From: Escherichia phage LF82-9
Reading direction: 5' to 3' (one strand)
Sequence record: PV660452
Length of the DNA: 64,000 bases
The position numbers and the translations under genes were made by a program. Below are positions 12,158 to 42,256 of this stretch, piece after piece. Under the pieces are notes generated by a model. That model did no database searches and was not told the origin of the DNA. It was given only the letters and a program-made list of their open reading frames with translations. Every line of letters begins with the position of its first letter. Position 1 is the first letter of the stretch.

Positions 12158-12583
12158 TTAACTTAAACGTCTTTCTAAATATTCAATGTATTCTGCGGCT
12201 GCTTGCATCAGGTTACCTTCATAGCCGTCGTTATTTTCTTGTCCAGCTAATTTAGCTAATGCATAAGAAATTCGTTCACCTTCGAATTCACCAAGTTTAC
12301 TACCTAGCACATCAGCAATATCAGCCGAATCAATTTCTTCGAGTTCATCTATTGAATGGGATTCCCAGAAGCACCAAAGAGAAGTATCACGGTCATAGAT
12401 GCAAAGTTTCTCACCTGTGTTCAACATCACTTCGATAATGCCATGGTCGCCATAACCATCTTCGGTAGTAGTACCAATTACCTTGAGGATTGTTCCTTTC
12501 TTTAATTCAGGAAACTTGACTTGTAGTTCTTCGTCTTCTTTAACAATCTTGAACCATTTACCGCGAGTTTCAGAAATATTCAT
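12158..12583 (-). CDS. Hypothetical protein (141 aa); positional candidate for pin (Lon protease inhibitor), not verified
   Basis: ORF track 12158..12721 trimmed to ATG MNISETRGKWF...; lies between 49 and nrdC as pin does in T4. Confidence 0.45.
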   Translation of the reverse strand: MNISETRGKWFKIVKEDEELQVKFPELKKGTILKVIGTTTEDGYGDHGIIEVMLNTGEKLCIYDRDTSLWCFWESHSIDELEEIDSADIADVLGSKLGEFEGERISYALAKLAGQENNDGYEGNLMQAAAEYIEYLERRLS

Positions 12584-12584
12584 A

Positions 12585-12755
12585 TCAATATTCTCTATAA
12601 AAGTTACGATGAGAACGTTTAGCTTTGCGAAGCTGACGTTTAGTAGGACGAACTGTAAATAGTTGTCCAGAGAAAAAATTCGAATCGGTTTTAATAAGCA
12701 AATACCAATCATGCTTGCCATTTTTTAATAAACGGTACAATAATTTAACTTGCAT
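12585..12755 (-). CDS. Hypothetical small basic protein (56 aa)
   Basis: ORF track 12585..12782 trimmed to ATG at 12755. Confidence 0.3.
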   Translation of the reverse strand: MQVKLLYRLLKNGKHDWYLLIKTDSNFFSGQLFTVRPTKRQLRKAKRSHRNFYREY

Positions 12756-12903
12756 AATAATCTCTTCCCATTTCCATATCAATTAATTCATTTATTGAAG
12801 GTTCATCATAACATGGTTCTTCGTCGTTGTAAACCGTTTCGACGTCTGGCTCGACAGTCTCCCATCGAGCAGAATACCACGGTTTAACCCCGGAGTTTAT
12901 TGA
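12745..12903 (-). CDS. Hypothetical small acidic protein (52 aa); below ORF-track cutoff
   Basis: Manual translation MKSSINSGVKPWYSARWETVEPDVETVYNDEEP... Confidence 0.3.
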   Translation of the reverse strand, partial: SINSGVKPWYSARWETVEPDVETVYNDEEPCYDEPSINELIDMEMGRDYYAS

Positions 12904-13219
12904 GCTCTTCATAATCAATCCAGGATTCTAGCCCTGACGGCAGGTCACATTCAATGTTCCACAGAAGCTCTTCAATGGCTTGCAGGCGATTATATTCTTC
13001 AACAGTAATAGTAACCATTGTTTCAGGCTTTTTAACCATCATGTCATTCATCAGAATGTACAGATCTTCACAAACAGCCGGGTCGTCCCATGTCCATATT
13101 TCAGCATCTCGAACCAATGAAGTCGGAATAGAATTTAAAACTTCAAGCTTAGTAGGAGCGTCAGGACCGAGAAGAGTTGCTACAAATTTATATGCTTTGG
13201 CGAAATCAATATCGTTCAT
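12884..13219 (-). CDS. Hypothetical acidic protein (111 aa)
   Basis: ORF track; start region duplicates the nrdC-end/next-gene junction sequence. Confidence 0.5.
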   Translation of the reverse strand: MNDIDFAKAYKFVATLLGPDAPTKLEVLNSIPTSLVRDAEIWTWDDPAVCEDLYILMNDMMVKKPETMVTITVEEYNRLQAIEELLWNIECDLPSGLESWIDYEELNKLRG

Positions 13220-13238
13220 TTAAAATATTCTCGCAGTT
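13216..13238. repeat. 23-bp direct repeat, copy 1 (TCATTTAAAATATTCTCGCAGTT)
   Basis: Exact match to 13530-13552; each copy spans a start codon and its leader. Confidence 0.8.
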
Positions 13239-13534
13239 TATTGTTCTACCCAGGCACAGGAAACTTCGAAATCAGGACCACCGTATTCCCAGTGATATTC
13301 ACCAACAGGAATCCAGTCACCGTGCTCGTTTTCTTCGTAGTCTTCAGGTTCAAGACCAACGAATCGCCATTGAACACCTATGATTCGATTACCCATTAAT
13401 ATACGAAATTCACCCCATGGATTATCGATAGCATATTGGATATCGTTCTTAGCACGAGAACACATTTCTTGATATAACAAAGCTTCTAATTCGCCCTGAT
13501 CATAAGGGCCCGGGAAAGTTAAATCAATACTCAT
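13238..13534 (-). CDS. Hypothetical protein (98 aa) bounded by 23-bp direct repeats
   Basis: ORF track; ATG overlaps the nrdC stop (ATGA); W/E/Y-rich. Confidence 0.5.
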   Translation of the reverse strand: MSIDLTFPGPYDQGELEALLYQEMCSRAKNDIQYAIDNPWGEFRILMGNRIIGVQWRFVGLEPEDYEENEHGDWIPVGEYHWEYGGPDFEVSCAWVEQ

Positions 13535-13552
13535 TTAAAATATTCTCGCAGT
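13530..13552. repeat. 23-bp direct repeat, copy 2 (overlaps the nrdC 3-prime end)
   Basis: Exact match to 13216-13238. Confidence 0.8.
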
Positions 13553-13794
13553 TGGTCAAATCCACCAATATGACTTCCATCAGGAGCAAATACTTGAGGC
13601 ATAGTCAATCCAACTTGTGATTCACGTCCTAGTTTATTCAGAAGCTCGTCAATTTTTTCTTCATCAAATACACCTTTCTCTGGCATAACATTAATGAATT
13701 CGAATGGCTGTTTCTTAACAGTCAGCAATCGTTTCGCATTATCACAATAAATGCATTTATGAATAGTAGAGTCATACCCGTACACTTTAAACAT
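13531..13794 (-). CDS. nrdC: Thioredoxin/glutaredoxin NrdC
   Basis: MFKVYGYDSTIHKCIYCDNAKRLL...MPQVFAPDGSHIGGFDQLREYFK matches T4 NrdC from memory; start set at the ATG giving 87 aa. Confidence 0.9.
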   Translation of the reverse strand: MFKVYGYDSTIHKCIYCDNAKRLLTVKKQPFEFINVMPEKGVFDEEKIDELLNKLGRESQVGLTMPQVFAPDGSHIGGFDQLREYFK

Positions 13795-14200: not shown

Positions 14201-14505
14201 TATAATATTCTCTCAAATTTGTGGAAGCATTTACGGCATTTCAATTTCAAGTTATCAGTGGTCCAGTTAACCAGTTGGACTTGGATAGTTCCACATTCCG
14301 GGCATGGATGTTTTGCTGCTGATTTGGCAGCATTTTCACGTCGTTCAACCATTTTCATTATTTCGTTCCATGCTGGAGGAACGAACTCTTCTTCACCGTG
14401 GATTTTATCTCGCTGAACAAATTCAATCTTTGAACTATCGTCAATAAACTTAACCAAGCCATGATTAGTGCTCATATCAATATCCTCTAAAAGACGTAGT
14501 TTCAT
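14200..14505 (-). CDS. Hypothetical zinc-ribbon protein (101 aa)
   Basis: CPECG...CRKCFHKF four-cysteine motif at the C-terminus. Confidence 0.5.
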   Translation of the reverse strand: MKLRLLEDIDMSTNHGLVKFIDDSSKIEFVQRDKIHGEEEFVPPAWNEIMKMVERRENAAKSAAKHPCPECGTIQVQLVNWTTDNLKLKCRKCFHKFERIL

Positions 14506-28858: not shown

Positions 28859-29161
28859 TTATTTACCTTTAATTACTTTAGCTGCTTCGATAGCCGCTTG
28901 CTGAAGGTCATCCATAGACATACCGAATTTAGAAGCAAAGTTATCAATTTTCTTTTCGACAGCATTCAAAGGCTTGGCCTGTTTACCTTCATTAGCGCCA
29001 GGAAGAGCGAGAATACGCTCTTTGTCAATATAAAGGCTTACAAGTTTCTTACGGTCTTTATCGGACAAATCATGAAATGAATGGGCCTTTTTATTTATAG
29101 CGGCTTCTAATTTACCTGCACTCACTCGCGCTTCAGTAATAAATTCTTGATATGTTTTCAT
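28859..29161 (-). CDS. Internal-protein-like (IPII/IPIII-type) with N-terminal capsid-targeting leader, 100 aa
   Basis: N-terminus MKTYQEFITEARVSAGKLEAA resembles the T4 internal-protein leader cleaved by the prohead protease. Confidence 0.65.
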   Translation of the reverse strand: MKTYQEFITEARVSAGKLEAAINKKAHSFHDLSDKDRKKLVSLYIDKERILALPGANEGKQAKPLNAVEKKIDNFASKFGMSMDDLQQAAIEAAKVIKGK

Positions 29162-29192
29162 TTTTTGTTTCCTTGTTTGTTTTGATAGAGTA

Positions 29193-29225: not shown

Positions 29226-29486
29226 TTAAGCTTTACCGCCAGAAATAATTCCGAAGTTGTTAAAATCGTATCCAATATCGTCAACATCTACTTTAGGATT
29301 TACTACAACATAAGCAATTTCACTACGTTTTGCATAGGTGTTGATTTCTTTACCATCGCCACCTAAGAAAGAATACCCATTACGTTTTAATGAGCCAAAG
29401 TCTTCGGCATCACCAATGAAAGCTTTAACTTTAAATTTAGGACCTTTGGCATCTGCTTCAATGATAAATTCTTGATACATTTTCAT
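29226..29486 (-). CDS. Internal-protein-like with capsid-targeting leader (MKMYQEFIIEA), 86 aa
   Basis: Leader similarity to T4 internal proteins; body unrelated. Confidence 0.55.
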   Translation of the reverse strand: MKMYQEFIIEADAKGPKFKVKAFIGDAEDFGSLKRNGYSFLGGDGKEINTYAKRSEIAYVVVNPKVDVDDIGYDFNNFGIISGGKA

Positions 29487-29492
29487 TTTTCC

Positions 29493-29964: not shown

Positions 29965-30246
29965 CTATTTTTCTGAAGCGCCTGAAATATATTTTTCAAG
30001 ACGTTGTTTCATCAGCGAGCCGTTCTTAGCGATTTCTTCCGGTTTATCGCACATACGTAACAAGGCTTCAAGCTTAGCGATATCGCTGGTACGTTCAAAT
30101 TTGCGAGTATCTATCTTACTAGCAAGTTCAGAAATACGTGCTAATAGACTTTCGGCTTCAACCAAAGCTGCACCTAGCTTAGTTGCAAATGTGTCAGTAG
30201 CTTCGTTAAGAATAGATTCTGATAAAAATTCACTATATGTTTTCAT
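29965..30246 (-). CDS. Internal-protein-like with capsid-targeting leader ([11 protein letters not shown]), 93 aa
   Basis: ATG at 30246 overlaps the lysozyme stop (ATGA); leader similarity. Confidence 0.55.
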
Positions 30247-30731
30247 ATATACGCTTTCCAAGTTCCTGTTTTAAATGTTGAGATTACGCGTTTCGCGCGA
30301 TTAGGTGTCTGACGATACCATTTAGATTGGGCGAGATTTACTGCCGCTTCATCCCAACGTTTCTGTTGAAGCATACGAAGAGAATTAGTAAAACCAGCAA
30401 CGCCTGCTACACCCATTTGGAAGACCATATTGACCAATGCACACCGACGAACTGCATCTAAAGAATCATATACCGGTTTAAGTTTAGCATTACCCAAGAT
30501 TCCGCGAACGGCTTTATCGACGTCTTCATTAAATAGCTTTTCAGCCTCATCAAGGGTAATTGTACCGTTGCATTTACGACCGATCATTCTGTCAAGTTCA
30601 GCTTTAGCTACGGCTAAAGACGGGTTCTTTGTTACCAAGTGGCCTATGCCAATCGTCCAAAAGCCTTCAGTGTCTTTGTATAAAGTCAGTCTAAGACCTT
30701 CGTCATTACGAAGCATTTCAAATATATTCAT
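30243..30731 (-). CDS. e: Lysozyme (endolysin) e
   Basis: [32 protein letters not shown]...[22 protein letters not shown] matches T4 lysozyme; SD GGGAGG. Confidence 0.93.
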
Positions 30732-38008: not shown

Positions 38009-38482
38009 TTATATGATTTGTTTAGCAGACCAAATGCGGTCTTTAATAATTTTTTGGATGTCTTCAACATATTCAAGAGAGTGAACATGTGGGTTATCTT
38101 TGAAACTATAAGCACGAGCTAGCTTTTGGCCTTCAGTTTTGATTATCAAAAGTTCTTTAAGAATTGCTTCATACCTAGAGATAATTCCTTTAGCAATATT
38201 TTTTTCTTGTGCTGCTTTAGGGTCAGCCTTAGGAGCAGGTTTACCTGAAGCCTTTGCAAAAGCAGCTCCAGTAGCAACTAAACTTTTCCAAGCCATACTA
38301 ACTGCATTCCCTGTAAATCCTTCGGCTTTCATATCACGAGCAAATTGGAATCGTGATTCATCGGAAGCATCTTTATAGGAATATTTACCCGCGGCAATGG
38401 CAGCTTTTGCAACAGCTTGAATTTCAGTGCTAGATGCTTCATTTAACACCGCTTCATTTAAAAATTGAGCATATGATTTCAT
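38009..38482 (-). CDS. Internal-protein-like with capsid-targeting leader (MKSYAQFLNEA), 157 aa; late-promoter driven
   Basis: Leader similarity; A/K-rich body; TATAAATA upstream. Confidence 0.6.
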   Translation of the reverse strand: MKSYAQFLNEAVLNEASSTEIQAVAKAAIAAGKYSYKDASDESRFQFARDMKAEGFTGNAVSMAWKSLVATGAAFAKASGKPAPKADPKAAQEKNIAKGIISRYEAILKELLIIKTEGQKLARAYSFKDNPHVHSLEYVEDIQKIIKDRIWSAKQII

Positions 38483-38518
38483 CTTATTTCCTGTTTTAAT
38501 TCGTGGTTTTAATATACT

Positions 38519-41934: not shown

Positions 41935-42222
41935 TTACAAAAGATTTTTAGCAATAATTTTAAGCTGAGCTACTGAAATATGCTTGGCTTTAAACAAAGC
42001 AGTTTCTTCAGCAGGGGAGATAACGATTGTAGCACCATCTTTCTTAGCGGACCATCCATCACCAAGGTAAACAGTACCTTTGACTTCTTCTCCATCAACC
42101 AGGCTAATCATCGGTTTACCTTCACGTCCTTTGTTTGCTTTAATAACTTCGGAAGTAAGGGTCGCTTCGGTCAGAGTAGAAACGTTAGCATCAGGTGATA
42201 TAAATTCTTTATAGGTTTTCAT
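41935..42222 (-). CDS. Internal-protein-like (IPI-position) with capsid-targeting leader (MKTYKEFISP), 95 aa
   Basis: Leader similarity; sits just upstream of 57B as ipI does in T4. Confidence 0.6.
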   Translation of the reverse strand: MKTYKEFISPDANVSTLTEATLTSEVIKANKGREGKPMISLVDGEEVKGTVYLGDGWSAKKDGATIVISPAEETALFKAKHISVAQLKIIAKNLL

Positions 42223-42256
42223 TTTATTTCCTTGAGGTTGTTTATTTTATAGGATG

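Follow-up and report, generated by a model that had tools for sequence, protein, structure and literature searches.

A 23-bp repeat around an optional gp49.3-like gene in an RB69-like phage: probable scar of an old unequal crossover

How can a phage gain a small gene within a run of translationally coupled genes, without the next gene in the run being orphaned? The question is raised by a locus in the window (the whole 64-kb stretch of DNA that was analysed), in which the 3′ end of nrdC is followed by a gene for a protein of 98 amino acids, and this gene is followed by an exact second copy of the nrdC end, from which a gene for a protein of 111 amino acids starts (Table 1). The repeated sequence is 23 bp long and is called J here; the copy at the end of nrdC is J1 and the copy in front of the 111-aa gene is J2. 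The window is from an RB69-like (Mosigvirus) T-even phage. Over this region it matches Escherichia phage LF82-1 at 100% identity and other Mosigvirus phages at 89–98%, and its similarity to T4, which is about 83%, is restricted to nrdC. An initial annotation, made from the letters of the window, had taken the 98-aa gene to be inserted by recombination within the junction, carrying a copy of the junction with it.

Table 1. Coordinates, in the window, of the features at the nrdC junction and its second copy
Feature	Position	Strand	Description
nrdC (glutaredoxin/thioredoxin, 87 aa from MFKVYGYD)	13531..13794	-	Pfam Glutaredoxin E 7.8e-7; PHROG 22
J1	13531..13553	-	AACTGCGAGAATATTTTAAATGA; codes for the NrdC end, (Q)LREYFK*, and contains the overlapping start codon of the 98-aa gene
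Optional gene, 98-aa acidic protein (pI 4.05)	13238..13534	-	member of the T4 gp49.3 / Phage_T4_Y04L family
Present/absent unit	13239..13553	-	315 bp: one junction copy and the gene body
Joint	13238..13239	.	...GTAGAACAATA joined to AACTGCGAG; end of the gp49.3-type gene meets position -20 of the nrdC 3′ end
J2	13216..13238	-	repeats J1 exactly; non-coding; provides the start codon of the 111-aa gene
111-aa downstream gene, allele A	12884..13219	-	PHROG 11244; C-terminal 56 aa = PHROG 3402

The coding sequence of nrdC has 264 nucleotides, is labelled NrdC in the annotation of relatives and has 83% nucleotide identity to T4 nrdC. It ends with the codons CAA CTG CGA GAA TAT TTT AAA TGA (QLREYFK*), the last 20 nucleotides of which lie in J1, and its stop codon overlaps the start codon of the 98-aa ORF as ATGA. 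The end of T4 nrdC encodes the same peptide as J1, with three synonymous differences. In the window, the 23-mer (AACTGCGAGAATATTTTAAATGA on the minus strand, TCATTTAAAATATTCTCGCAGTT on the plus strand) is present in exactly two copies, with a spacing of 315 bp; no third copy was found in the 64 kb at up to three mismatches, and two matches occurred in 0 of 100 dinucleotide shuffles. A repeat search of the window also returned this pair with the same spacing (family D12). The bases that flank the two copies are unlike on both sides (C/A on one side, G/A on the other), hence 23 bp is the complete length of the exact repeat. The exact direct repeat at a gene junction that the initial annotation had described is thus borne out by the counts, and its assignment of the parts to the nrdC end, the start of the 98-aa ORF and the start of the next ORF, all on the minus strand, is correct; the upstream copy, which it had placed at 13530-13552, lies one base higher, at 13531-13553. 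The first base of J2 is the last base of the TAA stop codon of the 98-aa gene. The ATG of the downstream gene (ORF-A or ORF-B, depending on the allele) lies 18 nt past this TAA, in the same frame and immediately after a second TAA. At the joint, 1–2 nt (A/AA) are common to the two sequences that were joined, and the 315-bp unit can equally be written as 13216-13530.

The profile search that had been proposed for the 98-aa protein led to PHROG 4203, the family of T4 gp49.3 (E 1.1e-46, residues 2-98). PF26871 (Phage_T4_Y04L) is precomputed for the 96%-identical cluster of the protein and for its homologues; in the domain search, for which a local Pfam copy lacking this model was used, no nuclease, transposase or other Pfam domain was found in the 98-aa protein. 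By these matches, the protein is assigned to the gp49.3 / Phage_T4_Y04L family (PF26871, PHROG 4203), in which the motif WGE...VQW...VGLE...WEY.GPDFEV is conserved. It is a clear homologue of T4 gp49.3 (UniProt Y04L) and occupies the same interval, directly after nrdC, but is just 42% identical to it (tblastn, residues 5-98, E 1e-17). A HMMER search for homologues returned 7 representative clusters only, one of which, a 1109-aa repeat protein, was dismissed as a compositional match to an acidic EPEDY stretch; the family is small and limited to T4-like phages. The AF2 model of the protein has a pLDDT of 93.8, and structure comparison of this model gave no convincing structural neighbour. As modelled, the product is a folded, acidic accessory protein.

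Whether the gene is optional can be read from related phages. An IMG/VR scan for J gave 4 contigs only, so the survey was done on GenBank phage records, of which about 129 are related. The 98-aa gene, at 90% amino acid identity or more, is present in 56 of them, in a single copy in each, always in the one genomic interval and nowhere else. All 56 gene-carrying (filled) records have J2 with the same joint: 54 align through J2, the SF record was read directly, and the RefSeq duplicate of SF completes the count. Fourteen filled loci were read base by base, and all 14 have the joint ...GTAGAACAATA followed by A(A/C)CTGCGAG. The relatives AV113, ESCO47, AV109, FL31, JS09, mar005P1 and RB69 have a single junction and are without the 98-aa gene. 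In such empty genomes nrdC overlaps the next gene, and the sequence past J is the sequence that lies past J2 in filled genomes. BLAST alignments are in one piece for empty genomes and in two pieces spanning exactly +315 bp for filled ones, and the difference between the two states is exactly 315 bp, i.e., one J and the gene body. The comparison of nrdC-downstream regions that had been suggested as a check thus yields close relatives with one junction, no 98-aa gene, and nrdC fused to the next gene. The 98-aa ORF is far from universal in the relatives, in about half of which neither the gene nor a second J is present.

Filled and empty states occur with different versions of the downstream gene. 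Allele A is found in 13 filled records, 11 of which are LF82 isolates, and in 21 empty records. Allele-B junction sequences are present in 95 records: 43 of these are filled (the 56 filled records minus the 13 with allele A), and about 51, including RB69, are empty (95 minus 43 and minus EP32a, which is described below). All four combinations of gene presence or absence with allele A or B therefore exist, and the flanks of the filled records (56) and of the empty ones (about 72, A and B together) are 93–100% identical. There is also a third type of empty locus, in LNA2 and three IMG/VR contigs, in which nrdC and J are followed by a DUF7205 ORF. No tandemly amplified 98-aa gene was found in the databases, 67 records corresponding to 67 places. 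Across relatives, the interval from nrdC to gene 49 has at least five gene orders. With an optional gene between conserved flanks, breakpoints at a repeat of which the empty site holds one copy, and variable small genes, the locus is to be classed, on sequence comparison, as a recombination-generated indel polymorphism in the T-even accessory (hyperplastic) region.

Two observations on the surroundings may be added. In the IMG/VR contigs L006, L007 and L008, nrdC ends in an exact copy of the 23-mer J, and the 640 bp upstream are only about 62% identical to Mosigvirus; thus, the 3′ end of nrdC is conserved across otherwise unlike upstream contexts. The position after gene 49, about 1.5 kb from the junction, holds another optional element: a homing-endonuclease gene stands there in some empty-allele phages, being annotated directly after gene 49 in AV113 (L001 3434-3884) and AV109 (L020 2790-3263), and nrdD stands there in other relatives.

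The downstream gene is itself composite. In most relatives the place of allele A is taken by allele B, of 118 aa. The two alleles are about 40% identical over their first 60 nt and 100% identical over their last 117 nt, a pattern by which the 111-aa gene is judged to be a mosaic or fusion. Its C-terminal 56-aa module (PHROG 3402) is widely conserved; it is also a gene of its own in many T-even phages, and it stands alone in this way in LNA2, T2, RB18, Klebsiella phages and metagenomic contigs (free-standing genes at L005 2085-2255, L030 2815-2988 and L032 1395-1568). PHROG 3402 is labelled 'antitoxin from a toxin-antitoxin system', and the module has a weak match to the Pfam family of the T7 gp5.9 RecBCD inhibitor. 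In RB69 (AY303349, L027 1603-1960), allele B is split into RB69ORF092c and RB69ORF091c by a frameshift near ACTATTTTTGAAG; the gene may truly have become a pseudogene, or the early sequencing of this type genome may have been in error. The 111-aa protein has no similarity to T4 gp49.2 (E 2.0). Further downstream are genes for a gp49.1-like protein, PinA and endonuclease VII.

The two ORFs behind the two copies of J had been said to begin alike (MSIDL and MNDIDF), and this part of the initial annotation does not hold up. Common to the two ORF starts is only a 9-mer, TATTGATTT, offset by 3 nt. A match of this level is marginal: it was reached in 97 of 5000 shuffles and by 6 of the 108 scored ORF starts of the window, one of the six being the 98-aa ORF against itself. 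Beyond this 9-mer nothing of the repeat runs on into the ORF starts, and paralogy of the 98-aa and 111-aa proteins was rejected (E = 0.21). T4 gp49.3 begins MIEL, and KDF is found in allele B of the downstream gene. Each of the two motifs thus belongs to the family of its own protein, and the likeness is probably a coincidence.

The direction of the change can be approached through outgroups. Seven outgroups with a gp49.3 gene (T4, SP18, Merlin, a Klebsiella Jiaodavirus and three metagenomic contigs, the proteins of the contigs having 62–67% amino acid identity) have the 23-mer of their own nrdC end once only and have no J2; in these, the stop codon of 49.3 overlaps the start of the gene that follows, as ATGA or TAATG. 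This implies that J2 arose once, in the Mosigvirus lineage. In the metagenomic contigs L031 and L032, nrdC is followed by 49.3 and then by a 57-aa gene of the PHROG 3402 type, the order that would be needed in one parent of a crossover; in contig L030 a 57-aa ORF lies between nrdC and 49.3. The arrangement expected of a donor, with the 98-aa gene but without J2, was found in the outgroups and not within Mosigvirus.

Which of the two copies is the original, and how old the other is, can be seen from their variation. Among relatives, J1 has just one variant, which is synonymous (CTG>CTA). J2 has the variants ACC..., ...AAAATT..., ...CTAG... and ...ATGT, and its changes A2>C and T12>A would be non-synonymous (Q>H and Y>N) if read in the nrdC frame. 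The T12>A form is present in 23 of the 56 filled records, and in phage moha the GAG of the putative Shine-Dalgarno sequence in J2 has been lost. As J1 is coding sequence of nrdC, conserved as far as T4 with synonymous differences only, J2 is the derived copy. In 12 filled loci, the number of segregating sites is 32/241 in nrdC (without J1), 1/23 in J1, 48/292 in the body of the 98-aa gene and 4/23 in J2, the last two being indistinguishable (Fisher p = 1.0). J2 drifts at the rate of the gene body and so looks like a relic rather than a conserved element. The alleles of the 98-aa gene differ by up to 11%, which, together with the drift of J2, makes the duplication old within the genus.

Probably, then, the repeat is a scar left long ago by a single unequal (illegitimate) crossover, in which two versions of this locus recombined. 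We infer the crossover mechanism, its direction (by parsimony) and its consequence for translation from the sequences that have been compared. The parents would have been co-infecting Mosigvirus-like phages: one with a T4-like order, i.e., nrdC, a gp49.3-type gene and the next gene, and one with an RB69-like order, i.e., nrdC and ORF-A/B, in which the stop codon of nrdC overlaps the start of ORF-A/B (ATGA). Because J2 with ORF-A/B is collinear with the nrdC end with ORF-A/B, this other parent must have been a genome of the empty type. The breakpoints would have lain at the stop codon of the gp49.3-type gene in the first parent and, in the second parent, 20 nt before the nrdC stop. The product would have been nrdC-J1-98-aa gene-J2-ORF-A/B, in which ORF-A/B has, as part of J2, the spacer and the start codon that it had originally. 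Since J2 would have brought this start region with it, the added gene would not have severed the downstream gene from its translation start. Afterwards, filled and empty alleles would have coexisted and been reshuffled by homologous recombination through nrdC, J and the conserved 3′ part of ORF-A/B, and the 98-aa gene would have disappeared again on at least one occasion. Between the window and TH12, the ORF-A flanks are 100% identical but the 98-aa genes only 91%; this and the mosaic of alleles A and B indicate that recombination continued on both sides of the cassette. Of the earlier claim that the 98-aa gene was inserted by recombination together with a copy of the junction, the tie between gene gain and junction duplication is retained. 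The gene is, nevertheless, no newcomer, as genes of the gp49.3 family lie between nrdC and gene 49 in T4, SP18, Merlin and others; and the event was old and happened once, today's pattern also reflecting subsequent recombination and one deletion or more (that in EP32a).

An alternative is that the filled state is ancestral in Mosigvirus and that all empty alleles are products of homologous deletion between J1 and J2, in which case there was no insertion. A J1 x J2 crossover would yield exactly the empty alleles that are seen, genes of the gp49.3 family are old in the nrdC-to-49 interval of several genera, T4 is known to delete between short repeats (PMC9391042), and loss of the gene is demonstrated by EP32a. 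This reading is nonetheless unlikely, as the collinearity described above requires a template with nrdC next to ORF-A/B that predates J2, none of the outgroups has J2, and empty alleles come with three downstream cassettes, of which ORF-C never lies behind J2. Nor was there any empty genome with a chimeric J1/J2 derived from a drifted J2, all 23 matches being the J2 of filled genomes; this absence says little, since a chimeric J would alter a conserved tyrosine of NrdC. EP32a itself (OR544954, L026 1589-1635) has the arrangement nrdC-J1-G-J2-ORF-B, with nothing else between the two copies, and could in principle be a precursor instead of a remnant. A 24-bp tandem duplication of the junction would then have come first, by replication slippage, and the gene body would have been inserted later. 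However, EP32a is the sole record of its type, its flanks are 98.8% identical to those of its nearest relative, the filled APCEc01, and relative to APCEc01 exactly 291 bp (97 codons) are deleted in frame, the ends of the deletion having no bases in common. Its J2 has the derived A>C change that is found in filled genomes, its lone G is the first base past J1 in filled alleles, and a second, perfectly placed insertion would also be required. A tandem precursor is thus very improbable. The deletion leaves an ORF of 7 codons (MRPARIF*), with its TAA abutting the ATG of ORF-B, and EP32a is thus direct evidence that a filled allele may lose the 98-aa gene.

Two further explanations take the repeat to be something other than the scar of a crossover. 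J could be a functional element, i.e., a translation-initiation or coupling signal or the site of a translational repressor, the two copies of which are kept alike by selection. It does contain a GAG...ATGA start region, and kindred start regions of the form GAG(A/G)ATATTGATATGA are present at two other gene starts of the window (family D14). The identity, however, extends 9 nt upstream of the GAG into plain nrdC codons, J2 is no more conserved than its surroundings and varies as fast as the gene body, one phage has lost the GAG, J is missing behind the 49.3 genes of the outgroups, and it does not recur at unrelated junctions or as a third copy in the 64-kb window. RNA folding at the junctions was no better than in shuffles (z +0.9, +0.9 and +0.3). 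Selection for such an element is a most improbable cause of the identity. The remaining explanation, by which the 98-aa gene moves by itself as a cassette (transposon-like, associated with a homing endonuclease, or a moron) and the repeat is a target-site duplication, would account for an optional gene flanked by direct repeats, but is scarcely credible in view of what the insert holds. Its 292 bp encode the 98-aa protein only, with no nuclease or transposase domain, no inverted repeats or transposon ends were found around the gene, and one of the 'repeats' is the coding end of a host gene. A transposable element with target-site duplication was rejected on these grounds, in the absence of any Pfam domain and with the gene always at the same locus, and insertion driven by a homing endonuclease was rejected because the optional segment is without a nuclease domain. 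A moron would have its own promoter and terminator, whereas this gene is one member of a coupled polycistronic series: on the coding strand, none of the promoter-like sites, whose overall number is that expected from shuffles, overlaps J, and there is no terminator-like site at J. SegB is known to cut near the nrdC-49 locus in T6 (PMC13096335), and by analogy such cutting could promote recombination here.

An unequal crossover of the kind proposed matters mainly for what it did to the genes around it. The locus is a clean natural example of a T-even phage gaining a gene within a translationally coupled run without orphaning the next gene: because the crossover would have duplicated the last 20 nt of the upstream gene and the start codon, the downstream gene would have kept its own start region. 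The one shared joint also provides a dated marker for tracing recombination among the Mosigvirus phages that are candidates for therapy. The gp49.3-family gene is optional and probably conditionally useful. Its neighbourhood is one in which counter-defence genes have recently been found: Gp49.2 of T6 inhibits the OLD defence, which the neighbouring Gp49.3 of T6 does not (PMC13096335), NrdC.5 of T4 counters Dsr1 (PMC9391042), and PinA acts against Lon. From the company that its gene keeps, a role of the 98-aa protein in host takeover or counter-defence may be guessed. Perhaps, although this is quite unlikely, the arrangement J-gene-J acts as an 'accordion', in which the repeats serve rapid deletion and amplification of the 98-aa gene, the protein being a dosage-sensitive counter-defence factor that faces fluctuating defences. 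If so, translation of the downstream gene would be secured by the duplicated start region whatever the state of the locus, the 98-aa protein would be comparable to TifA in T4 or Gp49.2 in T6, and fluctuating host defences would maintain the polymorphism.

Other repeats are present elsewhere in the window. Between 15475 and 42306 there are dispersed repeat families of 28–59 nt (D1, D3, D5-D8, D4) that resemble early promoters of the T4 type (GTTTAC...TATAGT, minus strand), and GC-rich hairpins, AAAAGCCCC...GGGGC, also recur there; together, hairpins and promoter-like repeats look like PeSL-like cassettes of a neighbouring accessory region. Five small genes on the minus strand have a common start region (reverse complement AAAAATGAAAACATATCAAGAATTTAT...) that gives MKTYQEF..., at 29130-29165, 29455-29490, 30215-30250, 38451-38486 and 42191-42226; two of them are merely 325 bp apart, and these repeated gene starts could be substrates for recombination. 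Closer to the junction, GAG(A/G)ATATTGATATGA lies at 12580-12600 (pin) and at 14472-14492 (an internal or alternative start of a 101-aa nrdC.2-like ORF), and its likeness to the GAGAATATTTTAAATGA of J suggests a common style of start region. The listed 187-aa ORF of pin probably begins at Met47 (MNISETRGKW).

How does this locus compare with known systems? In lambdoid phages, mosaicism has been described by the model of Susskind and Botstein, in which conserved junction sequences lie between modules. The likeness is that J, too, is a conserved sequence at a gene border where alternative alleles exchange, with A, B and C diverging right after J. The conservation of J is, however, explained by its being the end of the conserved nrdC, and there is no sign of an evolved recombination linker. 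In the hyperplastic regions of T4-type phages, the comparable elements are the PeSL (PMC2839356, 2010; Comeau et al. 2014, PMC4122927). In both cases, short repeats at gene borders of the accessory region accompany the gain, loss or replacement of small ORFs between close relatives. J is nevertheless not a PeSL cassette, since it has neither a sigma-70-like early promoter nor a terminator or stable stem-loop within it; a coding end was duplicated here on a single occasion, whereas PeSL form a dispersed family.

The closest counterpart is recombination at short homologies within the T-even group itself. Short-homology or illegitimate recombination in these phages is reportedly a theme of the work on T4 rII and Hp17. 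Amplifications and deletions at short homologies have been documented in T-even phages (Srikant et al. 2022, PMC9391042), and in T6 the segment from gp49.1 to nrdC.1, which is this very locus, was amplified under pressure from the OLD defence (PMC13096335). The phage group and the neighbourhood of the locus are the same, and in both cases the unit is gene-sized and bounded by a short direct repeat; the founding joint here has, likewise, only 1–2 nt in common, and from the repeat that it left behind more deletions or amplifications are to be expected. The published cases are laboratory events at homologies of 2–10 bp, whereas here a 23-bp duplication is part of a long-lived natural polymorphism, a coding end with its coupled start site has been duplicated, and no amplified form was found in the 56 records. 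Recombination of this kind, illegitimate or at short homologies, is well known from the accessory region of T-even phages, and the locus reveals no new mechanism.
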